Virus record (IMG/VR): IMGVR_UViG_3300037585_001448
Location: 29,141 to 93,140 of that record
Strand: one strand, 5' to 3'
Length of the DNA: 64,000 nucleotides
DNA from: a virus
The notes under the pieces were generated by a model. That model was not told where the DNA came from. It saw nothing but the letters and a program-made list of their open reading frames with translations, and did not search any database. The position numbers and the translations under genes were made by a program. This document shows, one piece after another, positions 1 through 40,473 of this stretch (the stretch's first letter is position 1; each line of letters starts with the position of its first letter).

Positions 1-3000
1 ACAGTTTGCAAATTGCCATCAGCATCAGGCAGACGCCACGCTTGAAACGGTTCGAACAGTCCGTTCGCCCCGCCCTCCACCACACGATTCCCAGCCCCGT
101 CGCTTCTCCCAAAGATGTACGAGTCCACCATGTCTCCACGATCCGTACTCCCAGTCATTATCGACCCTGCCCTGACTGGGACTTGAAGCCTGTCGGCCTC
201 ATACAAAATCATAGAATCCATGTACGCACCCAAAATGCGCTGTATTCTGGGCTGAAAATCGGAGACTTCAATCATTGTGCCAAGGACTCGCGCCGTATCG
301 GAGCGGTTGAACGATCCAAACACCGTAAAGGTCACATCGAACCCGTCGTTCACATACCACGTTGCAGTAAAACCTATGATTTCTTCAAACGGCAACCTGC
401 CCGCTACAGCATCAACGCTTTCTCCCGTCACATCAGCCACCGCTTGAGCAACATCCCTATGTACCGCTTGGAGTCCCCTCAAACTGCTAATCAGTTTTTC
501 GCCGCGCTCCGCCCCTTCCGGGGTGCCCCCCATCCCGGCCCTGATCACCTCTTCGGTCGACCGCAACTCACCACCCGGCGTTGCGGGTGGATACCACTTC
601 TCATCCACGGGATGCCGCATCTGTTCCTCACTGAAACGATGCAAAGCACGGTTATTCCCACCCTCAAAGCCCATGGAAGCAAACTCTGCGTTGACTTGGT
701 CAAAGAAAGTCTGCGTGGGTACACTCTGGGTGCCAGCAGACAACGCTGTCGCCCGACGCAAAGCCTCAGCGGCAACAACCGTCTGATCATGCAACATCGC
801 AGAATCCGACAAAGACGCAGCAAACGGCAACAAGTCAGTCTCCAAGAAATTCAGGCTCGCTTGGATGTCAGCATCCAAAGCCTGAAGCCCCGCAAGAAAC
901 GTCGGATCATCCACTGCCCCCGTAGTCGCATCCACGGTCCGGACCACCAGCCCCGTAGGCCCAGTTGTAGAGCCAATGTTTCGGATGTCCTTGCTCAACT
1001 TGGCGAACTTCGCTACCCCTTCGCTCAGCAGGCGGGCACGAACCATCACCGAATCCAAATCCTCCAAGATGGGTGCCAACTGGCGGATCGCATCTATCGA
1101 AAACGCCACAGGGTTCGCACCCGGCGGTGCAGCAACCAGATCCTCAAACGGAATACCCGAGTTCAACCATCCAAGTGTCGTATCCGTCCCCGGCACACGC
1201 GGCGTAGTAGCCACCCGCCTGTACCCCAAAATGTCCTGCAAATCATCAACAATCGCAGTCACCTCGTTAACCAAAAGTTGCGACTCAACACGCCCCTCAT
1301 GCAACAAATTGGTCAACTCGTCTACACGGGCCTGCGCTTCAGGAAGATCAGCCCCATGACGGGCCACCCACGCCTCAAGATTCTCAATCGTCTGCGCCCG
1401 CGCACCCGCCCCCACAGCCAGAATCGCATCAACAACAGCCTGAGCAGCAGCCTCATCATCCGTCAACCCCTGCAACGCCTCATTGCCAACCCGAACAGCG
1501 TCCTCCAAATCAGCCAACTCGCGGGCATACCCCCTATAGGTATCAGCGTTATAGATCAAACCCTGCGAAGCCGCATACGACTCAATGGACCGCAACCGAA
1601 TATCCGCAGCCAACGAATTGATATGAGCATTCTCGCGGGCCTCAAACCCCCGAACAAACAACGACTCGCCCTCACCCAAGTGACCAGCCTCACGATACGC
1701 AGCCTCAATCTGCTCCGGAACAGACAACCCCTCCGGCTCAGTCGTAAGTTCACGGGCAGGACGGCGACGCCTAGTCGCCAACTCCTCCGGCGTCAGATCA
1801 CGCCGAATAACAGTAGACCGACCATCCGGCCCCTGACCCACCACACGCTGCTGCACATCGGCACGCTGAGGATTACTACGCCTCAACAAACGACGCACAC
1901 TCCCCGACCCATCCGCTCTAGGGACCACCAACTCAGTGCCATCACCAAACGTGCCATCGGCACGGGTACCCGCAGGCCGCATGTTGCGGCGGCGAAGCCG
2001 CCCCGAAGTAGCCCGACGACGCACCTCATCCATAGTCTGAGCGTCCGGCAACACCTCTTCAAACTCGCGGGAAACCCCCTCCATCCACGGCGGCAAACCA
2101 CCACCATGCGCCCCCCGAACAATCTCCAAACCATCAGGAGTCCAAATCTCCGGCGTGTACCCCCCAAAGTCCACCATCACATCATTCATGTCATTAACAA
2201 GTTGCCCCTCAGACCCATACAAATCGCCCCGAGACAAAAACTCTGAATCAGGAGTACGAATCAACTCGTCATAACGCCGAACAACAAACAAGATCTGCTC
2301 ATCCGACAACCCGGGGAAACGACCCCGCACCGCATCCATCACCTGCGGAGAAACAACACCATCAGCGAAATCGTCCACCAACTCCGGCGACAACTCCGTC
2401 AAACGCCCCAACGTCTCATCATCCACGCGCCCAACATTCTGCTGAACCTCATTCAAGAAAATCTTGCGCCGACGCATAGCGCTATCAGCCCAATACCCGC
2501 TCGTCATCGCACCACGGTTGTAACTGTTGCGTATAAAGTTACCGAGAATAATCTTGTCAGGATCCTTCGTGCGAAGAAGACTGTTAGCGACCTTCTTCCG
2601 ATCACGACCCTTCTGCTTAAACGCAATATCCTCGTCCGTAGCGCCCCGACCCCGAGCCAACGTGTCCAAATACTTTTTTTGCGGATCAACAAAGAAATCA
2701 CGGAACGTCTGACCGAAACGAGAAGAAGCCACCTTCTCCCAACCGATACCCGGCGACGACATGATCGATGCCGTCACACCAGAAGCAATCGGAAACACAC
2801 CAAACGGCAACACATCCACAGGCACATTCGCCGCACGCTGCAACACCTGCCTGAACTCTTCAGGGATCTGATCCAACGTTTCACGCTTCTGGGCCTTAAA
2901 GACCAGATCTGCCATATCGGCATCCGGACCCAACACCTTCGCCATGCGTTCCTGAACGAGCCGTGGAATCTGAGACGCACGCTTGCGTGCAATACCAGCA

Positions 3001-3761
3001 GAACCACGGGTCAGCCTGCCCAACACTGGGCCTGTTCCCGGGACACGGAACCTCAGCCCCGTTTCAATCCCAAGATCATCGATAAGTTTCTTGCCGACCT
3101 CGCCATGCTGTCGTGCCAGAACATTTCTGGCACGAGAAACACTGCCACCCTTGGCACCAGCAGCCACCACAGCATCCTGTGCAGCCCGCAACGTAGCCTG
3201 CTGAGTGGCATCCCTGACACCCAACTCCCCCAGATCCTTCACCAACGGTGCCAGATCGTCCACAAGCCCCTTAGCGCCCCTCGCACGGGCAAAAGCACCC
3301 AACCCCCCAGCCCAAGACAACGGATCCAGCAGAACGTCTCCAGCAAGCCCTACAGCCCTGTTACCCCACTTGCCCAGATTGATATCTTCATCATGGAGAA
3401 AGTCGCCAAACCCATAATGTGTACGCGCCTGCTCCGTGAAGTCGCCCCAACTGAAACCCTCACCGTCGAAAGCGTCCTTGATCTCCTTCACACCCGAAGT
3501 GAGAATCGCACGGGGCATATCGATTACACCCAGTGCTTTGCCTAGGAAACCGCCGAAACCCCCGCCACCCTGTTGGGCGCCCTGTTGGGCGGCACGGCCA
3601 CCCGAGGCGGCGAGTGCCGCCGCCATGCCAGCACGGTCAATCCCCCCCACCCCCCTAGGGGTGGTAGGCAGCGTGGGCAGGCCCGTTGGCATGGCGGGTA
3701 GCCGGGTACCACGGTTCTCTACGGCCTTGAAGATGTCTTCAGGAGACAGCCGGACGACCAT
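1..3761 (-). CDS. Giant putative internal-virion/ejection protein, >1250 aa, runs off the left edge (partial)
   Basis: Not in the ORF track. ATG at 3761 (MVVRLSPEDIFKAVENRG...GFLGKALGVIDMPRAILTSG...DVLLDPLSW). No stop in the stretches I read; the + strand ORFs 6..2246 and 2679..3545 are its in-register antisense shadows. Function inferred from size and position. Confidence 0.65.
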   Translation of the reverse strand, partial: MVVRLSPEDIFKAVENRGTRLPAMPTGLPTLPTTPRGVGGIDRAGMAAALAASGGRAAQQGAQQGGGGFGGFLGKALGVIDMPRAILTSGVKEIKDAFDGEGFSWGDFTEQARTHYGFGDFLHDEDINLGKWGNRAVGLAGDVLLDPLSWAGGLGAFARARGAKGLVDDLAPLVKDLGELGVRDATQQATLRAAQDAVVAAGAKGGSVSRARNVLARQHGEVGKKLIDDLGIETGLRFRVPGTGPVLGRLTRGSAGIARKRASQIPRLVQERMAKVLGPDADMADLVFKAQKRETLDQIPEEFRQVLQRAANVPVDVLPFGVFPIASGVTASIMSSPGIGWEKVASSRFGQTFRDFFVDPQKKYLDTLARGRGATDEDIAFKQKGRDRKKVANSLLRTKDPDKIILGNFIRNSYNRGAMTSGYWADSAMRRRKIFLNEVQQNVGRVDDETLGRLTELSPELVDDFADGVVSPQVMDAVRGRFPGLSDEQILFVVRRYDELIRTPDSEFLSRGDLYGSEGQLVNDMNDVMVDFGGYTPEIWTPDGLEIVRGAHGGGLPPWMEGVSREFEEVLPDAQTMDEVRRRATSGRLRRRNMRPAGTRADGTFGDGTELVVPRADGSGSVRRLLRRSNPQRADVQQRVVGQGPDGRSTVIRRDLTPEELATRRRRPARELTTEPEGLSVPEQIEAAYREAGHLGEGESLFVRGFEARENAHINSLAADIRLRSIESYAASQGLIYNADTYRGYARELADLEDAVRVGNEALQGLTDDEAAAQAVVDAILAVGAGARAQTIENLEAWVARHGADLPEAQARVDELTNLLHEGRVESQLLVNEVTAIVDDLQDILGYRRVATTPRVPGTDTTLGWLNSGIPFEDLVAAPPGANPVAFSIDAIRQLAPILEDLDSVMVRARLLSEGVAKFAKLSKDIRNIGSTTGPTGLVVRTVDATTGAVDDPTFLAGLQALDADIQASLNFLETDLLPFAASLSDSAMLHDQTVVAAEALRRATALSAGTQSVPTQTFFDQVNAEFASMGFEGGNNRALHRFSEEQMRHPVDEKWYPPATPGGELRSTEEVIRAGMGGTPEGAERGEKLISSLRGLQAVHRDVAQAVADVTGESVDAVAGRLPFEEIIGFTATWYVNDGFDVTFTVFGSFNRSDTARVLGTMIEVSDFQPRIQRILGAYMDSMILYEADRLQVPVRAGSIMTGSTDRGDMVDSYIFGRSDGAGNRVVEGGANGLFEPFQAWRLPDADGNLQT

Positions 3762-26501: not shown

Positions 26502-27358
26502 CGGGACAGCGCCCCTACCGCACCGCTCTTGACGGCTGAACCGCCAAGGCGTGCCCGTCCACCGGCAGCCTGTCCAGCCGACCGGCCCGACCCGCCGAAA
26601 GACCCGGCAGATGATCCCCGCCCGGCGCACACCTTCGGGTACTTCGTGTCGAAGACGCTCTTGACCGCTTGGTCCTTGTCACGCAACGCCACCTCAACCG
26701 ACGTACTGACGACCATTTCGGCTTCGGCCTGTTCGGCAGCGAACGCCTCTTCGGCTTCGCGTGTCGCTTCCAGCCGGGCTTGCCTGATCCGGCCCGCCAC
26801 CCGGTCGGTGAACCCAAGCAGGAACGCGTTCTTCCAAGCGATGACATGGCCCGGCGCGTATGTCTCCGACCGCATCTGAGCGACCATCTCTGGTGCATGG
26901 ACCGCTTCGGCGGCTTGAAGGCTCAACGAGGTGACGAGCATGTCCACATAGTCAAGGTCGGACTCAAAGCCGCAGACCTCAATCCACTTGACGTACTGCC
27001 GCTTCGGACGCGGACCCCGGTCGGCAACATCAACCTCGTACCAGTCGTTCAACTCTGGGGAGAACTGCTTGCGGCCCGCTTGGATGATCTGCGTCAACCC
27101 GTGAGCACGGGCGATCTGGGAAACCAGATTCATCCGTGGACTCTCGTACTTCCCGGCATCGACGTAGAACCGTCGAAACCCGATCGTGTCTTCGACCGGT
27201 TTGCCAGCAGCGAGCACCAGCGCCTCTTCGATGCCGTACTTCGCCATCAGGCGTTCGGCACCGCTGATGAAAGCGTGGGCCTCTTCCTCGTAGTCGGTGG
27301 CTTCGGCCTGATCCAGCAACGCCCGGACCTTGGCGAGCACCTTGTCATGGTTGCTCAT
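26498..27358 (-). CDS. DUF2786-domain protein
   Basis: KVLAKVRALLDQAE...EEEAHAF...AERLMAKYGI N-terminus. Confidence 0.8.
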   Translation of the reverse strand: MSNHDKVLAKVRALLDQAEATDYEEEAHAFISGAERLMAKYGIEEALVLAAGKPVEDTIGFRRFYVDAGKYESPRMNLVSQIARAHGLTQIIQAGRKQFSPELNDWYEVDVADRGPRPKRQYVKWIEVCGFESDLDYVDMLVTSLSLQAAEAVHAPEMVAQMRSETYAPGHVIAWKNAFLLGFTDRVAGRIRQARLEATREAEEAFAAEQAEAEMVVSTSVEVALRDKDQAVKSVFDTKYPKVCAGRGSSAGSFGGSGRSAGQAAGGRARLGGSAVKSGAVGALSR

Positions 27359-27723
27359 TAGATGATCCCCGCCTTGTCCAAGTAGTCGGCTGCGAACTTC
27401 ATCGCCTCGTTGAAGGCTCCGGCGTCTAGCGACCATGCAGGTACGCCGCCGTGGAGGTTGAGTCCAGCGGTCTGGCACCGGTCCTCGTCCAGCAAGGTTG
27501 ATGCGTAGTACCGGCTGGCGAACTGGCCGTGGCCGGGGAACGTCGGGTCGCAGTTCGGACGGGTGTAGTCGTAGAACTCAACCATCGCGCCGTATGGCTT
27601 GCCGTCCGGGTCAACGCTGTCGTTGACCAGACATCCGTCGCGACCGTAGGTCTCTCCCTGTCGGACGATCTTGACGAGGAACACCTTGCCCTCGTCGTTG
27701 GTCACCTTGTGGAACTTGTTCAC
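27358..27723 (-). CDS. Hypothetical protein
   Basis: GTG start after the start-associated sequence CCGACAACCAACAAGGAGAGACA. Confidence 0.7.
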   Translation of the reverse strand: MNKFHKVTNDEGKVFLVKIVRQGETYGRDGCLVNDSVDPDGKPYGAMVEFYDYTRPNCDPTFPGHGQFASRYYASTLLDEDRCQTAGLNLHGGVPAWSLDAGAFNEAMKFAADYLDKAGII

Positions 27724-27778
27724 TGTCTCTCCTTGTTGGTTGTCGGTTGGAACTCGTGGGCACCGGGGCAGCAAGCCT

Positions 27779-28234
27779 TCATTCGACGTACTCCCATTCG
27801 CCTAGACAATCCTGAATGAACAGGTCGTGGTTGAAGCACTTGGCGCAATCGCAACCCGCCTCGTACTCCCACTTCCCCTTGAACGGTTCGCCGGTCATGG
27901 TGTGCTGGTTGCGCCAACCCTTGACGGGCCGGTCCTTGGGGCGGGTCACCGCTGCCCGCTCACGGGCGTTGGCCTCTTCCCTCTCGCGCTGCTCCTGCTC
28001 CCGCTCTGCGATCAGCGCCTTGTCCTGCCGGTAAGCCGCGGCAACGTCAGCGGGATCGCCACCGCCGTGAACCCAACTCATACCGAACTCTGCGTAATCC
28101 TCGGCTGCGTGCTGTGCATCCATGTATTCGTCACAGGCCGGGCACCGCTCTGGTCCCATGTGGACCTCGGTCTGGCTTTCCGAAAACTCTGTGGCCTCCG
28201 GTTCCGTCGTGCAGGTTGCGATGTGCTCGCTCAT
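27779..28234 (-). CDS. Hypothetical protein with CxxC motifs
   Basis: GTGATG coupling; CPAC, CDCAKC. Confidence 0.65.
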   Translation of the reverse strand: MSEHIATCTTEPEATEFSESQTEVHMGPERCPACDEYMDAQHAAEDYAEFGMSWVHGGGDPADVAAAYRQDKALIAEREQEQREREEANARERAAVTRPKDRPVKGWRNQHTMTGEPFKGKWEYEAGCDCAKCFNHDLFIQDCLGEWEYVE

Positions 28235-28392
28235 CACTCGGCCTCCTTGATGTCGATGGTCGCCTTGGCTGCTGCCACCGTTGTCCACCGGGACTCACGG
28301 GGGAGCAGGGACAGGTACGGAGCATGAACAGTCACAACGCCATCGTCATCAGTTGTGATCTCATAGCCCTTGTAGGTGGTGGCGCTCATCAC
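28234..28392 (-). CDS. Hypothetical protein (alternative leaderless start at 28422)
   Basis: Follows a promoter + SAS cassette. Confidence 0.6.
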   Translation of the reverse strand: MMSATTYKGYEITTDDDGVVTVHAPYLSLLPRESRWTTVAAAKATIDIKEAE

Positions 28393-28422
28393 TGTCTCTC
28401 CTTGGTAGCCGGTCTCTGTCAT

Positions 28423-28458
28423 GACCCCAGTGTAGCCTGATGTAGCGCCTTGACGCAA
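28423..28458 (-). promoter_or_regulatory. Early-type promoter TTGCGT-N18-TACACT
   Basis: Member of the 7-copy family; ATG 6 nt downstream of the -10. Confidence 0.7.
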
Positions 28459-28463
28459 CATGG

Positions 28464-28862
28464 TCACGCTGCCTTCCTCTTCCGACTGGCGAGGATCTCC
28501 CCCACCCGCTCTTCGTGTTCGGACTCCCCGACCCGCCGGGCCACCTTCGCCACCCGATCAGCCTTGAACACCCGCGTCCCGCAGCCCACCTTGTCCACGC
28601 CGTTCTTCGTGTACGGGCCGTAGCACTCCACGAGTTCCCCATCGTGGGGACTCACGATGAACCGCCGGAACTTGAACCAGCCCGGCTTGCCGTACACCCG
28701 GAACCGTCGTCCCTTCACCAGCGGGAGGGTCGCCCCGTCGTACTGGTCGTGGAACTCCCAGCCCTCTGCTTCACGCTCGGCCTGCACCTCGGCGTAATGC
28801 TGCTGGTTGATCTTGACCCACTTCGCTGCGAGCGGTCGTGGGGCCGCTATCGGTTGTGCCAT
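28464..28862 (-). CDS. Hypothetical protein
   Basis: AAGGAGAGACGAC ATG. Confidence 0.65.
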   Translation of the reverse strand: MAQPIAAPRPLAAKWVKINQQHYAEVQAEREAEGWEFHDQYDGATLPLVKGRRFRVYGKPGWFKFRRFIVSPHDGELVECYGPYTKNGVDKVGCGTRVFKADRVAKVARRVGESEHEERVGEILASRKRKAA

Positions 28863-28954
28863 GTCGTCTCTCCTTTTGGCTGGTGACTTCCTTCCACAAA
28901 CACATTCTAGCATCTTGAAGCACGCTGCATTTTCGGGGTTCACCCCACCAAAAC

Positions 28955-28970
28955 CTGACCTGCGGTTATG
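28955..28970. repeat. 16-bp element CTGACCTGCGGTTATG, copy 1 (copy 2 at 54984..54999)
   Basis: Exact match; both copies intergenic. Confidence 0.8.
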
Positions 28971-29048
28971 CCCGCGCGCGAAAACTGAACATGCAGGTCA
29001 CAGCGTTACGAAAAAACTTTCAGAAAGTTTGCGGCTAGACTGGGCTAC

Positions 29049-29306
29049 ATGGCAACTCTGCTGAGGCCAGACCTCCCCACACCACAACTCTCCCGCGTGT
29101 TCGGGCATCTCAAAGACGACGCCCCATACGCCGACCTTGACGACGCCACCCGGACTGCGCTGGTCGATCGCGCCATGTCCCAAGGGGTTGCCTCGTTGAC
29201 ACCCTCAGAGCGTCAGATGATCGAAGACACCAACACCAACAGGCTCAAGAGGCTTCGACGCGGTGGGGTCAACTACGACATGCTCACCCAGCAACGAATC
29301 GACTAG
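29049..29306 (+). CDS. Small helical protein, candidate immunity protein
   Basis: TAGACT 7 nt before the ATG (leaderless); convergent with the MuF gene. Confidence 0.65.
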   Translation: MATLLRPDLPTPQLSRVFGHLKDDAPYADLDDATRTALVDRAMSQGVASLTPSERQMIEDTNTNRLKRLRRGGVNYDMLTQQRID

Positions 29307-29309
29307 CAG

Positions 29310-29549
29310 ATGGCTACCGACCCGATCACGCTGGACCGGCAAGCAGGACGCCTCGCAGCGTTTCTTCAACCCCAGCATCGCGGTGCGCTCGCCAAGACGG
29401 TTCTCGCCACCCCACCCGGCGACGACATCGCCGAGCCGTACCGGGGATGGTTGGAAGACCCCACGACCGTTCCTGTGATCGACCTTCTCAAGCCCTCAGA
29501 GTTGACGGCAGCCGACGCCGAGTGGATTCACGACGGAACCCGCGACTAG
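29310..29549 (+). CDS. Small helical protein, candidate immunity protein
   Basis: Stop overlaps the MuF stop in a CTAG palindrome (29546-29549). Confidence 0.65.
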   Translation: MATDPITLDRQAGRLAAFLQPQHRGALAKTVLATPPGDDIAEPYRGWLEDPTTVPVIDLLKPSELTAADAEWIHDGTRD

Positions 29550-32500
29550 CCGACACTGACCCCGACGGCGCTGCGATTGAGAATGACGTAGTAGTTGCCG
29601 GGGACTTCGGTGGTCGTCACCCCGGTACTAAAGTTGTACCCCGTCAACGTGGGCTTCACTACTTCGATGATGTCCACCCCCTGCGACGCCGCATACCTGC
29701 CGACATCCGTGTAGAGCAGTTCAACAGTCTCTCCTAGACGCTTGAGTTCGGCCATTGCCTCCTTCACCGCTGGTTCGCTGAACCACGGATGGTCTGCCCC
29801 CGCTATGTCCTTCATACTTTCAACGGGCCAGTTCCTCATGTAGTCAGGGCCGAGGATCGTGTTGCCACGCTGGATGTCGATGTCGTCATACCTTTGCATC
29901 GCTTCCGTGACGCTCAGTGTCGTCTTCTTGATTTCTTCGATCTGGCTGTTGAGCGGTTGGGCTGCTTGAAGCATTTCTTGTTCTAACGGTTCGTACAGGG
30001 CGATCTTGGCGTCAGCCTCAACAACCATTTCAACAACGGTCCCGTGTTCCCAGTCTCCGCTACCGGTACCGATCCCGAACTTTTTTGTTGCGAAGTCATC
30101 AGCGATGTCCTCAACGTCGCTGGCGTAAGTACCGTTGCCGAACAGCCCTTGTCCCACATAGGTGGTGTCGCCGGGGTCGATGAACTCTTGGACGAACTGA
30201 TCGACCTCCGCTCGCTCATTGGCACCGAAGCCGCGGTACAGAACTGTGCGCCCCTCTGCTATGGCGTCTTCCATTTCCCCAACTGTCAACTGTTGGACGC
30301 CCGCGTCAGGCCACTGGGTTTTGATGATCTCCCGCAACGCCGGGTCGTTCGATACCTTTGGGTCGTTCCAACTGAGCCGGTTGTCGCCCGTCTTCGGCAT
30401 GGACTCTATGACTTCTTCTACGTTGGCTACTTCGTCAAACCACTTCTCGGGCTTCGTCGCTTCGACCACACGCCCAACCGGCTGCTGTCCTTCGTTGATG
30501 AGCCGAGCGAACTCCTCAAGATCGTCAATCGTTTCCGATAAAGCCGAGGGATCGACAACCGGTGGTCTACCCGCTGCCCGCTGCCTGATCTCGGTGAGTG
30601 TGAAGTCCAACACCTCCGGCGATTCGGCTTGGGTGACGCGAGCCGCACGGATCATGTCGTTGACTCTCCCAACCTCAGGAAAGTCTAAGAGTTCGTCGGC
30701 CATGACAACAGCGTTCCGGTTCAAGAGAAGAACCTGACTGCTGTACGCTTCATCACCAGACGAAATAAGCGTGTCAACAACAGCGTCGTAGCCGAGCAAC
30801 GTCGCGATCGCCCCATCGTCGGCACGCGAAACCTTGACACCCTTGAAGCGGCCTTGCGCCCCCTGCATTTTGTCATTGACGACCAGCCGGTAGATCGACT
30901 GGAACGCCGGGTCGTCTATCGGGTCGCCGGTTTGTTTCGCTAAAGCAACCAGACCGAACGGGTCGTCACCCGTGTACCCCAACCGGTCCAGCGATGTGCC
31001 AACAGTTTCAATACTTGCCGAAGACGGCAGCCTGCCCGAGATATGTCCCGGTAGCACATCGTCAATCGTCCGGCCCCGGATGTCTCGTAGCGCCGACACC
31101 GCAGCGGTGGACGCATCATCTATCGCAAGGTCAGCGGCAACCTCAACGATCTCTTTCGCTTGGGCACCCATCGCCTGTTCGATAAGAGCAAGGTCGCTGC
31201 CCGTGACGGTCTTTGCGTCTGGTTGGAGCGCCGCACGAAGCACACCACCCGCCTCGTCCCCGCTCCAACCCTTTGAGTACGCCGCCGCCATGTCCATCGC
31301 GGTGTCCAACCCATCGCCATCGCCAAGGGTTCGCAAACCAGCCTCCGCGGAGGTCTCGCCAGCGTTGGAGAAGAAATAGGTACCGTCGCCGTAGTGGCCG
31401 GTCCCGGTGTGGAAGTCCCCGGATTGGAGTTCTTCAAGGAACTGGATGTTCTCGTCGCCGCGCAGCAACTCCAAGCCGCCTGATTCCAACACCTCGTCCA
31501 GTTCAGCGTCGGTTACCAGTTCAGGGAGGTCGTCAAACCCTCTGGCCCTGCGAAGATCCTCCAGTTGCGCCTTGACAGCGATCGTGTTGTCAGGGTCGGT
31601 GGGGTCAACTTTGACGCGGTATCTGACCCTTGTCGGGTCAGCGCGCGCATCGTCCAGCGTCGCCAAACCGCTATCAGTGACCATCCGTTTCGCCTTGTAA
31701 TAGTCACGGTCGATCATCTCTTCTAACGCTTCGCGGGCTTGGGCCTCCCACGCAACCGCTACCTGATCCAAGTTCGCACTCGTACCGAACGGGTCCACGA
31801 GATCAACGATGTCTTCAACATCCACGACCGGGCGCACAAAGTCCGGGTTCTTAGCAAGGAAGTCGTCGTACAGGTCCGGTCGAACAATGCGTTCCGATTC
31901 CCCGGCGATCTTCTCGTACACAAGGATCGGCTTTTCGCCCTGCGCGACGTTGTTGTCCCACAACCTGATCTCATCGAACAGGTCGTCGGCTGCCGCTTGG
32001 GGGAACACTTCCGACACGCCAGCATGGGTGTCGCGTATCACCTGCTCTGGGACACGACGACCGCTTCGCGCCCCTCGGGCTGCTGAACGGGCCACCGCTT
32101 CTTCGGTTTCGATCGTGACGTACTCGGCTGTCACTCGGGTGGAACTGGCACGGGCCTCAGCGACCTTCTTCTGCAACTTGGCGTAAGACGAATCGCCGGT
32201 ACCGTCCAAGACAATGTTGTTGCTGCCGTCCAACGCTTCGCTCATCAACTGCTTGCCCATGTACGACGACTCTTCATGCACATACGCCGCAGCGTTCACA
32301 GACCAGTCGCCGCGCTGGTCGATGATCTGGACGTATTCGGGAATCATGTCTTTGGCTTCGTCGGCGTTGACGAGCACATGACGATCAGGTAACACAATCG
32401 TGTCGGTGTTTGTGAGGCTGGACTTACCGGACGCCGGGCCACCCCCCATGAACACAACCTCGTTGGATTCGGTGTAGCCGCCCTTCGCTAACTCTGCTTC

Positions 32501-35236
32501 GATATATGGACGGTGAACGCCCTCAACACGCGACTCAATCCACTTGCCGTCCACGGTGTTGCGGGCCATTGTGTCGATCTCTGGCACAACGTCGTAGTCG
32601 GCTTTGCGAAGAAACTTGGCGTAAGCGTCCTCGTCGTAGATTTCCAGCAAGCCATCCTTCTTGCGGAGGATCAACTGGGGTGGATCAAAGTTCGTGTCCC
32701 ACAGTTTGATGTCGTCAAAGATGTTCTCGTCCAGAATGTCGGGAAAGATCCGGCTGATACTGGAATGGGTGTCTCGCACCACCTGTTCAGGGACGTACCG
32801 GCCTGTCCTGCGGCCACGGGCTGCCGCCCGGCGTACCGCCTCTTCGGTATCGACAGTCACATAGTCGGCGATGACGCGCTCACCGCTGCTGTTTGCCCGC
32901 GCTGACGACACCTTGCCCCGAAGTTTCTCAATGGACGAATCCCCGGTGCCGTCAAGCATCGTGTCGCGACCCGACTGAACCGACTCGGCCATGATCTCCT
33001 TGGAAAGCATGGATGACTCTTCGTGAACGTAGGCGGCAGCCTTCGTGTTGCTTTCCTTGGAAAGCACCTTGTATTCGGGAAGGTGTCCCTTGATTTCGTC
33101 GGCGTCAACGACGACCATCGTGTCCGGGTCGAAGTCGATCAACTTTTGCCTGATCGCTGTTCCCTTCCCTGACGCTGGACCGCCACCCATGAAGTGAACG
33201 ACCTGTTCGCCCGGCTCGGCAACAGGAACGTCGCCGATGATGTCGGCTGCGATGTCCCGGTGAAGTTGCCTTCGGAGTTCCCAGTATTCGCCGTCGATCT
33301 GCGTGTACGCGTCTTCGGTGCCTCCCGGTAAGCGACCCCCGAACCGGTTGTAGAGGTCGTCGTCTGTTGCCAGCCGGTACGGGTTGGGTTCTTCGGGGAA
33401 CCACTCAAGGTCCGTGACACGTTTCGGATGAGGGAGGTCGTCGGCGATGTCGGCAGCGGCCCGAACCAGACGCTTCTTCTCAATGTCGTCGATGCCTATT
33501 TGCCGGGACTTCTCGTAGTAGCCCCAAATCTTGTCTTTGACATCAAGGCTGTCTGGGGTGTGGAACTGGATTTCGATGATTACGCCGTCTGGGCCTCGGA
33601 AGTTTGCGTTGATGCCGTTGTACGGGTTCTTGGCGTTGGGTTGACGCCAGTAGTTCTTCGGTCCCTTGGTGAGTTCGTAGCCTCGGTCACGCAGGTCACG
33701 CATCGCTGCGGCGACATCATCGTTGTACCGGGCTTCGTCTATGACCATCGTGTACCGAACAGAGTCGCTTACCTCGTCGGCGACCTCGGTTACCGTTCGT
33801 AGCCGCTGCGGGAACGCTGCCGTTTCGTCTACGAAGTCGGTGGCGATCTTGCGGGCCAGCGACGCTTCTTCCTTGACGTTGAACTGGAGGCCGTACAGGT
33901 CCGCTCCGATGTCGGACGCGGTGCCCTGCACCTGAGCGGTGATGTTGCCCTGCGCCGCGAACGCCTTCTTGTGGATTCGGGTTGCTTCCCGCCACGCCTG
34001 CTCGCGTACCGCAGCAGGGATGTCCGGTGGTGCCATGACCTGACCGGGTAGCCCCGTGGACGGTGGAACGATCGTGTCGTACACCACGGTCCAAGTGCAA
34101 CGGCAGTTCGGGTGCGCTGGGGGCAGGTCTCGGGGTTCGACCACCCAGTTGCCGCCCCTTGGGTACGCAGCGTTGAACGATCCCCCCTCAAAGGCGACGA
34201 CCTTGCCGTGAAGCGGTTCACAAATCTGGCACACCTCAAACGATGAGGTGATCCACTGACGGCCAGCACGCTGCGGGTTGAACATTCCTGCTTCGGCTGC
34301 CTGCCGGGCTGCGACCATCTTGCCTTGGTTGGAGGCTTCCATCATCTCGGTGCGGGAGATGACACGGGTTCGATGCTCGCGGAGTTTCTTGCCGTACTTG
34401 GATGCCTCACGTTCAACGGCTTCCAACGCCTGCTCGGTGGTCTTGCCTGCTGCGACCGCTTCCGCGAACACGGTGCGGCCCCGGTTCAAGACGGCGTTGT
34501 GTTGCGGCAGCGTCAACCCGGCTACCGAAGGAGCGAGTCGTTCACCGAACTCTGCTAGGTCACCCAGCGACGGTGCCGTCTCCAACACCTCGCCGAGCAT
34601 GTTCATCATGGCTTGCCTGCCGCCCTTGCCGGTTGTGCCACCGATGATGTCTTGCAGGTTCGCTCGGGTGTCCTCAGCGATGTTGGTAATCAGCCGGGCT
34701 GATTTGTTTTCGGCCCACTGTTTCCCCGCCGGGGTTTTGGTGGAGAACCCGACAGAGAACGACGACCCCACAGGTGGCATCAACGTCACCGTCTTCGGGG
34801 TTGCTGCCTTCTGGATCTGGTTGATGGCTGTCGGGTCTGGTTTGCGTTCCAGTTGCCCTACCAGTTCGTCCCAGAACACCGCCCCGGATTCGTCTATCTG
34901 GTTGAGTAGTTCGGTAGCCAACTCTTGGCGGGCTGGTTCCAGATACTCCAACAGGGGGCTGAGAGGCCCGTCGGCACGCGCCGGGTACAGGTCGGTTCCC
35001 AACTGGCGGGCGTTGCCGGGCAGGTACGAAACGTCGTCGGTGAGGTTGAAGTCAGCGATCACCGACGGTGGCATCGTCAACGCTTCGTTGAAGGTGCGTG
35101 CTACCCGACGTTCCCTCGGTGTGAGCGGAGCACCAATCGGTTCCAAGCCGGGCTGCCCCGGTACCCGCTTGCGGGGAACCTTGACGGTTGTCTTAGCGAA
35201 CCCTGACCTTGCGCCCCGTCCGGTCGTGACGGGCAT
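29546..35236 (-). CDS. Polyvalent MuF (head morphogenesis) protein: MuF + RelA/SpoT-like + 2x zeta-toxin-like kinase + 2x ART-like domains (1896 aa)
   Basis: RVISRTE...CQIC...PPAHPNCRC; VKEEASLARK/DSVRY/YNGIN/EIQFHT; GGGPASGK x2 with DADEIK/NADEAK, HEESS, LDGTG; LLRG..GHYGDGTY and LYRG..GLFGNGTY; directly downstream of the portal. Confidence 0.85.
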   Translation of the reverse strand: MPVTTGRGARSGFAKTTVKVPRKRVPGQPGLEPIGAPLTPRERRVARTFNEALTMPPSVIADFNLTDDVSYLPGNARQLGTDLYPARADGPLSPLLEYLEPARQELATELLNQIDESGAVFWDELVGQLERKPDPTAINQIQKAATPKTVTLMPPVGSSFSVGFSTKTPAGKQWAENKSARLITNIAEDTRANLQDIIGGTTGKGGRQAMMNMLGEVLETAPSLGDLAEFGERLAPSVAGLTLPQHNAVLNRGRTVFAEAVAAGKTTEQALEAVEREASKYGKKLREHRTRVISRTEMMEASNQGKMVAARQAAEAGMFNPQRAGRQWITSSFEVCQICEPLHGKVVAFEGGSFNAAYPRGGNWVVEPRDLPPAHPNCRCTWTVVYDTIVPPSTGLPGQVMAPPDIPAAVREQAWREATRIHKKAFAAQGNITAQVQGTASDIGADLYGLQFNVKEEASLARKIATDFVDETAAFPQRLRTVTEVADEVSDSVRYTMVIDEARYNDDVAAAMRDLRDRGYELTKGPKNYWRQPNAKNPYNGINANFRGPDGVIIEIQFHTPDSLDVKDKIWGYYEKSRQIGIDDIEKKRLVRAAADIADDLPHPKRVTDLEWFPEEPNPYRLATDDDLYNRFGGRLPGGTEDAYTQIDGEYWELRRQLHRDIAADIIGDVPVAEPGEQVVHFMGGGPASGKGTAIRQKLIDFDPDTMVVVDADEIKGHLPEYKVLSKESNTKAAAYVHEESSMLSKEIMAESVQSGRDTMLDGTGDSSIEKLRGKVSSARANSSGERVIADYVTVDTEEAVRRAAARGRRTGRYVPEQVVRDTHSSISRIFPDILDENIFDDIKLWDTNFDPPQLILRKKDGLLEIYDEDAYAKFLRKADYDVVPEIDTMARNTVDGKWIESRVEGVHRPYIEAELAKGGYTESNEVVFMGGGPASGKSSLTNTDTIVLPDRHVLVNADEAKDMIPEYVQIIDQRGDWSVNAAAYVHEESSYMGKQLMSEALDGSNNIVLDGTGDSSYAKLQKKVAEARASSTRVTAEYVTIETEEAVARSAARGARSGRRVPEQVIRDTHAGVSEVFPQAAADDLFDEIRLWDNNVAQGEKPILVYEKIAGESERIVRPDLYDDFLAKNPDFVRPVVDVEDIVDLVDPFGTSANLDQVAVAWEAQAREALEEMIDRDYYKAKRMVTDSGLATLDDARADPTRVRYRVKVDPTDPDNTIAVKAQLEDLRRARGFDDLPELVTDAELDEVLESGGLELLRGDENIQFLEELQSGDFHTGTGHYGDGTYFFSNAGETSAEAGLRTLGDGDGLDTAMDMAAAYSKGWSGDEAGGVLRAALQPDAKTVTGSDLALIEQAMGAQAKEIVEVAADLAIDDASTAAVSALRDIRGRTIDDVLPGHISGRLPSSASIETVGTSLDRLGYTGDDPFGLVALAKQTGDPIDDPAFQSIYRLVVNDKMQGAQGRFKGVKVSRADDGAIATLLGYDAVVDTLISSGDEAYSSQVLLLNRNAVVMADELLDFPEVGRVNDMIRAARVTQAESPEVLDFTLTEIRQRAAGRPPVVDPSALSETIDDLEEFARLINEGQQPVGRVVEATKPEKWFDEVANVEEVIESMPKTGDNRLSWNDPKVSNDPALREIIKTQWPDAGVQQLTVGEMEDAIAEGRTVLYRGFGANERAEVDQFVQEFIDPGDTTYVGQGLFGNGTYASDVEDIADDFATKKFGIGTGSGDWEHGTVVEMVVEADAKIALYEPLEQEMLQAAQPLNSQIEEIKKTTLSVTEAMQRYDDIDIQRGNTILGPDYMRNWPVESMKDIAGADHPWFSEPAVKEAMAELKRLGETVELLYTDVGRYAASQGVDIIEVVKPTLTGYNFSTGVTTTEVPGNYYVILNRSAVGVSVG

Positions 35237-36564
35237 CAGTCAACCGATTCAGCCTCGGTGCTGACCGGCAGGCCACCTACCTCCCGCAAATACGCCTCCA
35301 AGTTGTCGTCGGGGAAGAGTTCAGCCCCAGCGCCAGTGAGTTTCGCAACGTATTCGCCGAGTTCTTTCAAGTCCACGTTCCTGACTGGGGCGTGGGTCAA
35401 GTTCGGGGTCAGGTTCGCGTCGATGCCGTTGACCTTGAGTAGCCGTGGGAACGCATGGTTTTGGAACACCGACGCGATGCCGTCCAGATACGCGTTGAGA
35501 GACTGGGAGAACAGGGCGACCTTCGACACCGACAGGGCTTGCGTGCCGACCTTTTCATGGCCGAGGAGGATGAAGTCCGCGAGCATCGTCATCGCTATCC
35601 GCTGGTCGTAGCGGGCAATGATGGCGTCAGTATCGAACTGGCGGTCACCACCTGTGCTTAGGAGTTTCAGGTCGTAGGCAAGGTTGTTGGTTTCTGGGTC
35701 GTAAGCCAGAGGGAACACGACACCCTCTTGCTCGTCGCGTCGGATGTTGCGAATGATCTGCTTGATCTCGTTGAGAGCCGACGTTTCCTCAGAGGTGGCG
35801 TTGTTCGATAAGAGTTGCGGAGGGACATACGCGATTGGCAGCCCAGCCAAATCGCGTTCAATGCCGATCGCTTCGATCTCTTGGATGCGCTTCTTGAAGT
35901 AGTAGGAGGTGTACGCGTTGCGAAGCACCGACTTGCCTTCGGGGTTGTTCAACGCGCTGGAGGTGCGGAACAGGAGAGCCTTCTCAATCGGGATCTCAAC
36001 GAGACCCTTTCCTGAGACCGGGTTCAACTGGTACATGCCCTTCACGCCGCCAGACTCGTCAAGGTTCCAGCGTTCCAGCGTGTCCTGCGACCGGGGTGCG
36101 AGTTTGCGCCAACCGATCATCCCGTCGTTGTAGCGGGATCGTTCACCGTCGTCTGTCCAACCCTTGCGGTACTTGTAGACGATCTCAAAGTACGACCAGC
36201 CGTAAGTCAGGTAGGACATGATCTGAGCGAGCATGTCTTCCCAAGTGGTCGTCATGTCGGTCATGCACTGGCCGCAGAACGTCGCGATGTCGGAGGCTTG
36301 TTCGTTGTCTGGGTCGGATGGTTCGACCTGCCATTCGACAGCGCGCATCAGCATGGAGATGGCTTGGATGACTGCGCCGACCACCGGGTCGTTGTCGCGC
36401 ATCTCCCGGTAGGTGCGATAGGCGGTACGCCCCCGGAGGGCGGTCAGGAACTCTTCGCGAACCTGACCGTCGTAAACTTGGAGGCCGGTTGATCCGATCT
36501 CCATGAAGTCCGTGGACGTTGCCTTCTTCGTTTCAGCAAACGTATCGGCAGCAACGTCGGTCAT
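35236..36564 (-). CDS. Portal protein (Mu gp29/DUF935-like)
   Basis: YREMRDND.V, YGWSYFEIVY, NPEGKSVLR, IERDLAGLP motifs; TAGAGT 6 nt before the ATG. Confidence 0.9.
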   Translation of the reverse strand: MTDVAADTFAETKKATSTDFMEIGSTGLQVYDGQVREEFLTALRGRTAYRTYREMRDNDPVVGAVIQAISMLMRAVEWQVEPSDPDNEQASDIATFCGQCMTDMTTTWEDMLAQIMSYLTYGWSYFEIVYKYRKGWTDDGERSRYNDGMIGWRKLAPRSQDTLERWNLDESGGVKGMYQLNPVSGKGLVEIPIEKALLFRTSSALNNPEGKSVLRNAYTSYYFKKRIQEIEAIGIERDLAGLPIAYVPPQLLSNNATSEETSALNEIKQIIRNIRRDEQEGVVFPLAYDPETNNLAYDLKLLSTGGDRQFDTDAIIARYDQRIAMTMLADFILLGHEKVGTQALSVSKVALFSQSLNAYLDGIASVFQNHAFPRLLKVNGIDANLTPNLTHAPVRNVDLKELGEYVAKLTGAGAELFPDDNLEAYLREVGGLPVSTEAESVD

Positions 36565-36699
36565 GGTGCGACTCTACTCCTAAGCGCCAGCAGTCAGGAC
36601 GACCGTGAAAGGAGAGTATCACGATCGCCCTGACCGGGCTGGTGGTGCCATGCCGTGGAAGGCGTGACGGGACTCTAACAGGGAGAGTCCGTTGGAGTG

Positions 36700-36891
36700 C
36701 TAATCCTCTTTCTCCCAGTCGTAGGGAGGATGGATCAGTCGAACGTGGGAAGCCTGCTTGAACGGTTCCGGTTCTGGTTCGTCGCCGATGCTGCGGATGT
36801 ACCACCCGGCTGCGACACCGATCAGGAACAGGGACATGGGGATCAGCAGGTATTCCCAGAACGGGTTGGTGACACCCATCAACGCAATCAT
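36700..36891 (-). CDS. Small membrane protein
   Basis: Hydrophobic helix; ATGA overlap. Confidence 0.55.
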   Translation of the reverse strand: MIALMGVTNPFWEYLLIPMSLFLIGVAAGWYIRSIGDEPEPEPFKQASHVRLIHPPYDWEKED

Positions 36892-37079
36892 GCTGCCAGC
36901 CCTTCGTTCAACCAGATGACATCGCCGCCCTCTTCGGTTGCAACACTGACCTCGCCGGTGTCATAACTCCTGATCCACAACCTGATCGGGTTCTCCCCGT
37001 CACGGTCGGTGATGTTCAGCACGGCTAGTTGGACGCCTGCATGTTCGTATGACCTCATGTGTTCAATGGCGACGCTCAC
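36888..37079 (-). CDS. Hypothetical protein
   Basis: Coupled overlaps on both sides. Confidence 0.6.
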   Translation of the reverse strand: MSVAIEHMRSYEHAGVQLAVLNITDRDGENPIRLWIRSYDTGEVSVATEEGGDVIWLNEGLAA

Positions 37080-37642
37080 GCTGCCTCCTTCAAGAGTGTG
37101 ACGAGAGCGTTGACCTCTTCGACCTGAGCCAAGGTCAGTTCGACCTTGACGCCGTTCTGGCCCGTTTCAGCGACGCTGGTGTAAGACTCACCGCCGGGCC
37201 GATCCGAGTGGTAGACGTTGAGCAGGTCGTAGGTGTCGGTGTCGATCGCAGCCCACCGGACCTTGTTGGCCTCCCGCTCGGCCTTCCGCTCTTCGGCAAC
37301 GTAGAGGTCGTGCTTCTGCCTGTCCAGTTCAGCCTCGGTGATCTCGTCCAAGGTGTATTCGTTGGACCAGTTGGCGATGTCCTTCGTCGCGATCAGCGTC
37401 GTACCGGCTTCGTTGCGGGCCGTCAGCACCGTCTCGTACTGGTTGGTTTCGTAGTTCCACTTGACGGCGAACACTTCGACGTACCGCTTGATCGTCTGGT
37501 CCCGGTAGGACCGGTCGTCACCAACCGGGACGATCTCGTCGCCAGTGAGCAGCCACTTGTCGAACCCGCTCGGCGAGAAGCCGTGCCTGCGTGACCGTTC
37601 AACGTGGTACACGGTGTTCGGTTTCAGATCCTTCGCTTTCAT
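37076..37642 (-). CDS. Hypothetical protein
   Basis: SAS + strong SD. Confidence 0.7.
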   Translation of the reverse strand: MKAKDLKPNTVYHVERSRRHGFSPSGFDKWLLTGDEIVPVGDDRSYRDQTIKRYVEVFAVKWNYETNQYETVLTARNEAGTTLIATKDIANWSNEYTLDEITEAELDRQKHDLYVAEERKAEREANKVRWAAIDTDTYDLLNVYHSDRPGGESYTSVAETGQNGVKVELTLAQVEEVNALVTLLKEAA

Positions 37643-37666
37643 TCTCTCTCCTTATTGGTTGTCGAA

Positions 37667-37807
37667 CTAGAGGGTGATGGTGATGGCCGTTACACCCGAC
37701 GCCTCTTCAACGGCGGTGTCGATGTAGCCAAGCAAGCAGGGGCCGCACACGGCACCTAGTTGGAGTGTGGGGATCTGGACCCCGCAGTCTTCGCAAGCCT
37801 TCGTCAT
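37667..37807 (-). CDS. Small zinc-finger protein (CEDC...CGPC)
   Basis: ATG after SAS CGACAACCAACAAGGAGAGAGAC. Confidence 0.6.
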   Translation of the reverse strand: MTKACEDCGVQIPTLQLGAVCGPCLLGYIDTAVEEASGVTAITITL

Positions 37808-37832
37808 GTCTCTCTCCTTGTTGGTTGTCGAA

Positions 37833-38093
37833 CTAGCCATTGAGGTAATGCGTCCAGTCGGAATCGGCGTTGGAGTCGGCAGCACTAGCCAAGTCTTCGG
37901 CGTTCCAACCGACGTAGAACACTGGCGACTCCCGCACGTTGTCCAAGTAGCCCTCGTAGGCGTGGTACTTGGCAGCCTGTTCCGGGTCTTCCGGGGCATT
38001 AGCCCAGCCGTTCCGCTCTTCGGCGTAAGGGTTCTGGGCGCTGGCCTCGCTCACCCGGTCACACACTTCTTGGAAGGTCTCGGTCTCGGTCAC
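37833..38093 (-). CDS. Hypothetical acidic protein (leaderless)
   Basis: GTG 6 nt after TATGAT. Confidence 0.65.
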   Translation of the reverse strand: MTETETFQEVCDRVSEASAQNPYAEERNGWANAPEDPEQAAKYHAYEGYLDNVRESPVFYVGWNAEDLASAADSNADSDWTHYLNG

Positions 38094-38128
38094 GAACTAA
38101 TCATAGCCCGTGTGGAGCGTGGATGCAA
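38094..38128 (-). promoter_or_regulatory. Promoter TTGCAT-N17-TATGAT
   Basis: Family member. Confidence 0.75.
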
Positions 38129-39349: not shown

Positions 39350-39985
39350 TCACAGCGAAAGCACTTCCTGTGCCAACCGAGCAACCGCGGCTTCGCAGTA
39401 CCGTTCCTCAATCTCAATGCCGACCGCTCGCCGCCCAAGGTCTTTCGCGGCTCGCAGCGTGGACCCTGCGCCCATGAACGGGTCAGCAATCACGCCAGTC
39501 GGGAAGTGGTCGGCGACGATTCGTTTCATCAGCGTGACCGGCTTCTGCGTGGGATGTGTTCGCCTCAGATTGCCCTTGTCGGCGTTGACTACCCCGCCAT
39601 GTTGGATGCGGTACATGAACCCGGCCTTGTCGGGACCGTTCATCCACGCCAACTCAAACGGTGACCCGAGCATCCGGTCAGCCGCCTCAACGACCCGCTT
39701 GTCCCAGCAGACCCACCGACCCGGTTCGGGTAGCGCCGACGGGAAGTGGTTGGCTCCGAACACCAGCATCGGGGTCGGGTGGACGGCTTCGATCACCCAC
39801 CGAGCCAGAGCATCGGACTCGTCGCCGGGAATCGTCCCCCAGTCCCGCGCAGTCTTGATCGTCTGCTGGTAGTCGATGCCGTAGGGCGGGTCCGTCACCA
39901 CCACATCAAACGTCAATGTCGGCAGGATCTCGCGAGCGTCGCCGTGGTAGATCGTCACCGCGTCGTCCTCGTAATAGGGCTTCAC
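39350..39985 (-). CDS. DNA N6-adenine/N4-cytosine methyltransferase (beta class)
   Basis: DPPY, HPTQKP, DPFMGAGST motifs. Confidence 0.9.
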   Translation of the reverse strand: MKPYYEDDAVTIYHGDAREILPTLTFDVVVTDPPYGIDYQQTIKTARDWGTIPGDESDALARWVIEAVHPTPMLVFGANHFPSALPEPGRWVCWDKRVVEAADRMLGSPFELAWMNGPDKAGFMYRIQHGGVVNADKGNLRRTHPTQKPVTLMKRIVADHFPTGVIADPFMGAGSTLRAAKDLGRRAVGIEIEERYCEAAVARLAQEVLSL

Positions 39986-40473
39986 ACCGCAGGTTGGAAC
40001 TGCTGCACCCCGAGGCGTTCAAGGAACGTGACGTACACCGGGAGTTTCGGATGGCCGACCATGACAGCCGGTGGAACCCAACCGGGTTCGCCGTACCTAC
40101 CCTCGGCCCCACGCCCCTCTTCAACGTGGTCTAGGAGATCGTACCGTTTGACTGTGACAGCGAGTTCGTTGGCTAGCACCTGTTCGGTGTAGACCGGGTA
40201 CTCCATGCTCTTGGGCCGGGTAATGGCGACCACCGCTTCGACCACCCGATCGGAGAAGCCCAGATCCCGTAGGTCTGTGGCAGTCACCGGGGTGTCTTCG
40301 ATGATGTCGTGGAGCCAAGCGACCGTCGATTCCTCAGCGGTTGCTGTCTGGCGGGAGACCCTGCGAAGGTGATTGACGTAGGGCCGACCAACAAGGTCGG
40401 TCTGTTTGGCGTGGTACTTGGCTGCGAGCATCGCGGCTCGCACGCTCTGTGGTACCAGTTTCATCCACTTCAC
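39982..40473 (-). CDS. HD-domain small alarmone hydrolase-like protein (SpoT-HD/Mesh1-like)
   Basis: AAKYHAKQ....PYVNHL...AWLHDIIEDT...VKRYD. Confidence 0.8.
   Translation of the reverse strand: MKWMKLVPQSVRAAMLAAKYHAKQTDLVGRPYVNHLRRVSRQTATAEESTVAWLHDIIEDTPVTATDLRDLGFSDRVVEAVVAITRPKSMEYPVYTEQVLANELAVTVKRYDLLDHVEEGRGAEGRYGEPGWVPPAVMVGHPKLPVYVTFLERLGVQQFQPAV

Follow-up and report, generated by a model that had tools for sequence, protein, structure and literature searches.

Can a single head protein of a phage carry a whole set of enzymes directed at the host? The question is raised by a gene in the IMG/VR virus record IMGVR_UViG_3300037585_001448, of which we analysed a stretch of 64,000 nucleotides (hereafter the window: bases 29141-93140 of a single viral contig of 93,140 bp; coordinates are those of the window unless marked as contig). 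The gene encodes, in one open reading frame (ORF), a giant protein (P0001) in which the original prediction had recognised a MuF core accompanied by a RelA/SpoT-type synthetase (RSH), two zeta-toxin-like P-loop kinases, and two related domains resembling ADP-ribosyltransferases (ARTs; called C1 and C2 here). By comparing each module with curated families, solved structures and characterised toxins, we find that the protein joins MuF to five domains of effector type, and we regard it as probable that a marine siphovirus-like phage has here a MuF head protein of the polyvalent kind, with its effectors delivered together with the DNA; this is the best explanation that we have for the locus.

Fusions of this general kind are known. 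Work on polyvalent proteins has described MuF as a hub domain, named ARTs as well as fusions of MuF to zeta kinases and to RelA/SpoT domains, and predicted delivery with the DNA (PMC5512222). Such proteins unite a packaging domain with at least two effector-type domains in one phage polypeptide, as P0001 does with MuF, one RSH, two zeta and two ART-fold modules; proteins with 2-15 domains have been described, and the statement in the original prediction that MuF proteins usually carry a single toxin was therefore too modest. For the class, the reading in print is that several effectors are packaged in the virion and delivered along with the DNA (PMC5512222, PMC5576092), and by analogy it may extend to P0001.

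Results

One reading frame with seven parts

The motifs from which the domains had been called lie where they were placed: HPNCRC at aa 375 (nt ~34114), YNGIN at 539, EIQFHT at 555, GGGPASGK at 684 and 931, HEESS at 738 and 987, LDGTG at 761 and 1010, and LNR at 1505 and 1886 (Table 1). The MuF core is borne out by Pfam, in which Phage_Mu_F scores 33.2 bits against a curated cut-off of 29.6. PHROG head morphogenesis families (several of them of MuF type) match aa 140-400, and phrog_16619, a 'minor head protein', matches the zeta part. When the segments of the RSH, of C1, of C2 and of the linkers were run separately, Pfam gave nothing meaningful at E values up to 10.

The gene lies directly 3' of the portal gene in the head module, and its ATG overlaps the portal stop codon (TGATG). 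Public gene calls begin the protein 54 residues later (P0002, 1842 aa); we favour the 1896-aa form because these first 54 residues are kept in relatives and because of the start/stop overlap. That the giant ORF is an assembly artefact was considered and rejected, as the same architecture was found again in independent contigs: a metagenomic relative of 1888 aa (P0003, 88% identity) has the same seven-part layout, so the architecture recurs, and conservation over the full length of the polypeptide was seen in P0003, P0004 and P0007-P0011.

Table 1. Features of the MuF gene and its surroundings (window coordinates)
Feature	Position	Strand	Size or residues	Basis or remark
orfA	29049..29306	+	85 aa	first gene of convergent pair; candidate immunity/accessory gene of the C2 cassette
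orfB	29310..29549	+	79 aa	convergent; stop shares CTAG with the MuF stop; candidate immunity/accessory gene of the C2 cassette
Polyvalent MuF protein P0001, whole gene	29546..35236	-	1896 aa	single uninterrupted ORF
ART-fold domain C2	29549..30319	-	aa 1640-1896	terminal swappable module; triad positions R-Y-Y
ART-fold domain C1	30692..31564	-	aa ~1225-1515	with helical insert; triad positions R-Y-Q
Zeta-toxin-like P-loop kinase 2	31850..32545	-	aa ~898-1129	Pfam Zeta_toxin; 1gvn_B alignments
Zeta-toxin-like P-loop kinase 1	32597..33274	-	aa ~655-880	Pfam Zeta_toxin; 1gvn_B alignments
RelA/SpoT-type synthetase, Apk2/SaEAS kind	33425..33967	-	aa ~424-604	8vx3, IPP46 Apk2, phrog_7625/2859
Phage_Mu_F (PF04233) core	34091..34474	-	aa 255-382	Pfam; HPNCRC at aa 375
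N-terminal region	34817..35236	-	aa 1-140	no known family; kept in relatives
Portal protein	35236..36564	-		phrog_113, E 1.8e-84; immediately upstream of the MuF gene, translationally coupled
Aph1-like small alarmone ((p)ppApp) hydrolase	39982..40473	-	163 aa	7smg, IPP46 HD gene, phrog_990
Tape measure protein	13309-17502			late module
Major head protein	21699-22646			late module
XkdF-type protease fusion	24076-25386	-	436 aa	C-terminal XkdF-type serine protease domain
Small-terminase-like gene	38814-39305			late module
Erf-type recombinase	46151-46795
Endonuclease VII	48963-50102
Large terminase	51307-52866			farther from late module
Endolysin	61774-62514

A (p)ppApp-type synthetase and its hydrolase

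The Pfam RelA_SpoT model does not match the RSH segment, which was identified instead through a homologue of solved structure, PDB 8vx3 (E 4.8e-12), and through characterised Apk2 toxins; the two together uphold the call of a RelA/SpoT-type synthetase. The protein in 8vx3 is SaEAS of Streptomyces albidoflavus, an alarmone synthetase that is exported and produces (p)ppApp as well as (p)ppGpp, and the MuF-fused Apk2 proteins have been placed in the SaEAS family (PMC12691689). Conserved in the alignment with SaEAS are the motifs S-L-x-R-K, Y-x-G-[IL]-N and E-[IV]-Q-F-H-T and, within D-x-V-R-Y, the Asp that was mutated in the 8vx3 crystal (D121A). The Apk2 of pneumophage IPP46 is 28% identical (E 5e-22) over the whole toxin domain, with all Syn motifs, and the catalytic Asp and Glu are present in comparison with SaEAS and Apk2 alike.

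Apk2 toxin domains make only (p)ppApp, from ATP, and are toxic in E. coli; their genes precede two immunity genes, iapK (a binding inhibitor) and aph1 (a (p)ppApp hydrolase) (PMC12226406). A small protein encoded in the window matches PDB 7smg, a '(p)ppApp hydrolase', at E 9e-16; its weaker matches are to hydrolase domains in Rel enzymes and in Mesh1. The same small protein is 44% identical (E 2e-23) to the IPP46 HD gene found at the aph1 position downstream of apk2. The 7smg match and the identity to the IPP46 gene indicate that the phage carries the synthetase-hydrolase pair known from Apk2 systems, in which the Aph1-like hydrolase is probably the antidote to the RSH module. Homology, together with the hydrolase in the same phage, suggests (p)ppApp as the product of the module. 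The original prediction had stated that enzymes of this type make alarmones or modify tRNA; as the module is of the Apk2/(p)ppApp type, one should not take for granted that it synthesises (p)ppGpp or modifies tRNA.

Tandem zeta-type kinases

Two stretches of the protein match Zeta_toxin (PF06414; E 1.1e-40, 139.6 bits against a cut-off of 22.3), in agreement with the two kinases first called, and the two copies are 45% identical to each other (E 1e-60). A profile of both modules, the copy in cyanophage P-SS2 and the copies in an IMG/VR homologue (locus L005) matches residues 18-205 of the ζ toxin 1gvn_B (E 1.5e-6). In both copies, in P-SS2 and in L005, the residues corresponding to K46 (Walker A), D67, T118 and R171 do not vary, nor does the Asp that stands in the place of E116; the equivalent of R158 is placed with an uncertainty of about 2 positions. 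Because these catalytic equivalents are invariant, both zeta modules look catalytically competent. With the UDP-GlcNAc kinases ζ toxin and PezT (1gvn, PF06414) they share Pfam membership, the Lys of Walker A, the catalytic Asp, the Arg and the GTG motif; they differ from them in occurring twice and within a head protein. Among kinases of the zeta family there are others that take different nucleotides as substrates. No candidate for an epsilon-type antitoxin of the zeta modules was identified.

Two C-terminal domains of ART fold

C1 and C2 match no Pfam or PHROG family, including PF18760 (ART-PolyVal), and in a pairwise comparison they are weakly alike (27% identity, E 0.006). When 1.84 billion representatives were searched exhaustively with HMMER, 244 representative clusters matched either copy at E ≤ 0.001; both copies belong to this one family, and residue conservation in this ART-like family was scored over alignments of 50-54 members. 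Invariant or nearly so are an R-G in the first strand, G-x-G-x-x-G-x-G-x-Y, P-D-A, G-Y-D-A and [VI]-L-N-R-x-A; the first two positions of the ART triad (the R, and the Y of G-x-G-x-Y) are invariant in 52/52 members.

AlphaFold2 models built from the family alignments reached pLDDT 86 and pTM 0.80 for C2 and pLDDT 82 and pTM 0.79 for C1. The top Foldseek match of C2 was a chain of the cyanophage A4 pre-ejectosome (9k3a_B; E 7e-4, probability 1.00), followed by a long run of PARP2/1/3/16 catalytic domains (probability 0.6-0.96), and 9k3a_B was likewise the top match of C1. VIA, which is independent of Foldseek, aligned C2 with 9k3a_B at Z 8.3 (123 residues, rmsd 4.0 Å, 21% identity) and with diphtheria toxin (7.4), SAIP (7.2), MbcT (7.1), exotoxin A (6.9), cholix (6.8), ParT (6.5), tankyrase (6.5), RES toxins (6.4) and PARP1/2 (at least 6.0); for C1, ART-superfamily domains occupied 20/20 best matches (Z 7.2-5.7). 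The motifs correspond as well, Y-R-G to the [HR]-G strand and F-G-x-G-x-Y to the PARP-type G-x-G-x-Y-F. It is on the uniform match lists and this motif correspondence, rather than on the Z values, that we base the assignment: an ART fold is supported for the models of C1 and C2. Of the original claim of two related ART-like domains, the fold has thus stood up to structure prediction and fold search, and the canonical catalytic Glu is missing, a point to which we return below.

Links to curated ARTs can be traced in the family, all of them weak and all in agreement with the fold. Two of 52 short members match PARP (E 6e-4), and among 54 long members ART-PolyVal occurs in 2, ADPrib_exo_Tox in 3 and DRAT in 1, which may be separate domains. 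The nearest ESM-Atlas cluster is viral, with PF18760 ART-PolyVal in 22% of its members; in one protein of 1908 residues (P0034) the best hhalign segment falls within the PF18760 domain (E 0.014, weak), where the family motif aligns to Y-H-G ... F-G-R-G-F-Y-F. Phage_Mu_F is carried by 28/54 of the longer members. A peptidoglycan-binding motif for the family (profile A1) was rejected as a chance-level match (E 0.23) that the beta-rich model does not support.

An exchangeable C-terminal cassette

The homologue at locus L005 (2123 aa) has the common part N-MuF-RSH-zeta-zeta-C1. Its similarity to our sequence ends right after the L-L-L-N-R of C1 (window ~30692) and resumes at 29030, with 92% DNA identity, such that 1.65 kb of the window (linker, C2, orfB and orfA) is replaced in L005 by 2.55 kb of unrelated sequence. 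The alternative cassette (L005 7358-9906) comprises the end of the protein (~590 aa) and a 550-bp tail with small convergent ORFs (for example, 9574-9915); compared with PDB sequences, it gave no match.

In the Tara metagenome contigs L007 and L008, orfA and orfB again follow C2, with 95% aa identity and a pN/pS of 0.13, and we therefore take them to be real genes that travel with C2. They lie outside the late operon, and a possible promoter box of their own (TAGACT) stands 7 nt 5' of the orfA ATG. The co-variation, seen in a small sample of three loci with C2 and one without, fits orfA and orfB being an immunity pair for C2. Pfam found no families in orfA, orfB and three downstream genes, and ESM Atlas no usable match for orfB. 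A complex prediction of C2 with orfB and orfA scored 0.04, which, made without controls, counts neither way on binding. C2 by itself was not found in the IMG/VR search.

Module shuffling among relatives

What varies among relatives is the C-terminus, while the N-MuF-RSH-zeta core is kept; this is the pattern of polymorphic toxins in which a variable C-terminus is set on a conserved MuF N-terminus. One relative ends after C1 (P0005), another has one zeta domain (P0006), and three have other C-termini in which HExxH motifs were seen by eye (P0007, P0009, P0010). P0014 combines MuF, one zeta and two ART-like domains without an RSH, and P0013 combines MuF and two zeta domains with 1700 other residues. 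More distant zeta-bearing giants join portal or MuF to ART-PolyVal, ADPrib_exo_Tox or NUDIX. Where bacterial genomes hold distant relatives of the portal protein, the MuF proteins are of the ordinary sort and 296-642 aa long. The closest of these portal relatives, at 54% identity in a metagenome-assembled genome of the Nanopelagicales, is too distant to name a host, and comparing the region by megablast with 50,697 phage records gave no match.

Homologues in virions and in a pre-ejectosome

ORF030 of cyanophage P-SS2 (GQ334450, 17648-22147, our locus L001; 1500 aa) consists of MuF, one zeta and one ART-like domain. It shares with P0001 the MuF part, a zeta domain 40% identical to both zeta modules, and the same ART-like domain; it differs in its single zeta, in having no RSH, and in that much of its sequence is unrelated. 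The protein is present in purified virions, with 96.5 peptides on average, the highest count among those rows of the virion proteome table that were compared (PMC2784084). In 2009 it was listed as 'major capsid protein', and its GenBank label is 'minor head protein', without annotated effector domains.

The A4 chain 9k3a_B belongs to a pre-ejectosome resolved inside the capsid (PMC12002296). From the residue numbering in that paper the chain is probably gp27, a protein of >1700 residues in the DNA-binding outer layer of the pre-ejectosome (PMC12002296). Its residues ~1275-1600 are the closest solved structure to C2 and the top Foldseek match of C1; unlike P0001, it is an ejection protein of a podovirus, without MuF, and it has no significant sequence match. 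The A4 paper annotates no ART-like domain in this stretch (PMC12002296). By analogy with these homologues, P0001 would be packaged in the virion.

Genomic setting

The MuF gene is surrounded by a siphovirus-type late module, all on one strand. Between the MuF gene and the gene of the major head protein lie a DUF2786/DUF7168 protein (26498-27478, minus strand) and the XkdF-type protease protein. The large terminase and the portal are ~15 kb apart, so that the packaging genes are unusually split, and the interval between the two (36564-51307) holds the Erf recombinase, endonuclease VII, the Aph1-like hydrolase and many ORFs without matches. A 1248-aa ORF (56908-60654, minus strand) has no Pfam or PHROG match and contains an internal direct repeat with an offset of 42 bp and 73% identity (contig 87224-87550).

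The first 29 kb of the contig contain one further gene each for a portal, a major head protein and a large terminase, and the contig ends (1-2268 and 92948-93140) are 85-93% identical to an internal ~2.7-kb block of tail genes (contig 37347-40077; window 8207-10937). Given these doubled structural sets and the ends matching an internal block, two circular genomes may have been joined: the MuF gene may come from a ~55.6-kb genome that the assembler fused with a ~37.8-kb phage having a tail-gene block in common, the alternative being a real duplication. This leaves the MuF finding unaffected and matters for statements at the level of the genome. A giant ORF of 2432 aa (contig 25603-32901; window 3..3761, minus strand) extends beyond the start of the window, and after it comes an ORF of 872 aa (3767-6385, minus strand); both belong to the other structural set, which has matches to podovirus-like internal virion proteins.

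Discussion

In the mechanism that we infer, from packaging and ejection to substrates and toxicity, the MuF part would bring the polypeptide into the procapsid beside the portal, and on infection the protein or its fragments would exit the capsid with the DNA and act in the cytoplasm of the new host. There the Apk2-like module would pyrophosphorylate ATP/ADP to (p)ppApp, draining the adenine-nucleotide pool; the zeta-like kinases would transfer phosphate to a nucleotide or a nucleotide-sugar, which for classical zeta toxins is UDP-GlcNAc; and the ART-fold domains might bind or use NAD+ on host targets, or serve as structural modules of the internal core. In the producing cell or a lysogen, the Aph1-like hydrolase would remove (p)ppApp, and orfA and orfB may neutralise C2, the ART-like domain with which they travel.

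Several results weigh against this reading, first on the side of the ART-fold domains. The VIA Z-scores of C1 and C2 lie in the middling range by the tool's scale, and the family profile A1 finds no ART among PDB sequences. The catalytic signatures of the RSH and zeta modules are kept, and the ART Glu is not: its position at the start of the last core strand, located by motif alignment without coordinate superposition, is Q in C1 and Y in C2, and in the family it varies (Y26/E9/Q7/H4/F3 of 52). Since the Glu position is neither conserved nor Glu in our copies, ADP-ribosyltransferase activity may be absent from C1 and C2. Lack of the catalytic Glu does not keep several PARPs from being mono-ADP-ribosyltransferases, and there are toxins of ART fold that degrade NAD+ but transfer no ADP-ribose. 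On the side of immunity, aph1 lies immediately downstream of the toxin gene in the Apk2 systems, whereas the Aph1-like gene here is 4.7 kb from the toxin gene and thus not adjacent, and a comparison of IPP46 IapK with all window ORFs found no homologue. As for lifestyle, MuF toxins have been reported almost only in temperate phages (PMC5576092); among the ~40 ORFs scanned, many of them without matches, there was no integrase or repressor.

This last observation bears equally on the idea that the protein is a polymorphic toxin with which lysogens compete against other bacteria, as in the 'high-toxicity' model of Jamet, in which virions would dose non-immune neighbours, and the Aph1-like hydrolase and orfA/orfB would protect lysogens. 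The model is published (PMC5576092), the C-terminus is variable on a conserved core, the hydrolase is present, and C2, orfB and orfA are swapped as a unit in L005 and kept together in L007 and L008; the two small genes, convergent and outside the late operon with a possible promoter box, are moreover under purifying selection by their pN/pS. We nevertheless think it unlikely: besides the integrase and repressor missing from the genes scanned, a search for P0001 in GTDB genomes (one per species) found no prophage copy, the co-variation comes from few loci, and no known immunity family matches orfA or orfB.

A mainly structural internal-head or ejection protein, with the ART-fold (and perhaps other) modules as non-catalytic core blocks as in the A4 pre-ejectosome, would account for 9k3a_B being the best structural match of both C1 and C2, for gp27 sitting in the DNA-binding outer layer, for the unconserved ART Glu, and for the peptide count of P-SS2 ORF030, which tops the rows listed. 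It accords poorly with the full catalytic signatures that the RSH and zeta modules retain, with the encoding of a dedicated hydrolase for (p)ppApp, sensible only if (p)ppApp is made, and with the invariant polar R, Y, D and N-R of the ART-like family, which are as expected for a ligand-binding site, and we judge it quite improbable. Finally, the enzymes could act only in the producing cell, late in infection and undelivered, MuF fusion being incidental or a means of co-regulation. The gene does stand in the late structural operon, and ejection is the inferred step of our own account; the fusion to MuF is, however, kept in many relatives, the ART-like family is preferentially MuF-fused, a homologue is found in virions, and toxicity shortly before lysis would be of little obvious benefit. 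We hold this to be very improbable.

We return, then, to the polyvalent head protein with effectors delivered alongside the DNA. P0001 fits the polyvalent class (Iyer 2017; PMC5512222; PMC9503650) and the MuF polymorphic toxins (PMC5576092), and extends the Apk2 subfamily. With polyvalent proteins it has in common the giant polypeptide joining MuF to several effector domains; the combination of an RSH, two zeta and two ART-like modules is not found in PMC5512222, and to have two small convergent genes beside the terminal module is more usual for cassettes of polymorphic toxins. As in the Apk2 MuF toxins from prophages of S. pneumoniae, of M. haemolytica and of P. multocida (PMC12226406), MuF is followed by an RSH of the (p)ppApp-synthetase type and the same phage has an Aph1-like gene; unlike theirs, which is C-terminal, the RSH here is internal, with four modules after it. 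Each type of fusion has been described before (Iyer 2017; Jamet 2017; the Apk2 work), and P0001 is a rich example rather than a new kind of system. Because the general concept is already published, the value of the finding lies in added detail on a known class: what goes beyond the literature consulted is the combination of modules, the uncurated MuF-associated ART-fold family tied to a pre-ejectosome, the unlinked Aph1-like hydrolase, and C2 with its two-gene cassette.

A bolder reading can be put forward tentatively, as possible and on balance doubtful. The C-terminal domains would represent an uncurated, mostly MuF-fused ART-fold clade, marked by an invariant R, G-x-G-x-Y, G-Y-D and L-N-R but without a fixed catalytic Glu, and present also in the A4 ejection protein; they would be a non-canonical NAD+-using enzyme or a dual structural/effector module, the terminal copy in this phage group being exchanged together with a two-gene convergent immunity cassette. 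If this were true, the logic of polyvalent effectors and that of polymorphic toxins and their immunity would be merged in one marine phage protein.

The finding suggests that P-SS2 ORF030 be re-annotated as a MuF-zeta-ART-like polyvalent protein, and 9k3a_B as carrying an unannotated ART-like domain. It brings together an ART-fold domain, present in two copies, that current domain libraries miss, tandem zeta kinases, and a synthetase with its matching hydrolase in one genome, and it offers a compact, testable example of how several host-directed enzymes may be packed into a capsid on one polypeptide. Through their likeness to the pre-ejectosome, the members of the ART-like family link the two views that have been taken of internal head proteins, as 'effectors' and as 'ejection proteins'.

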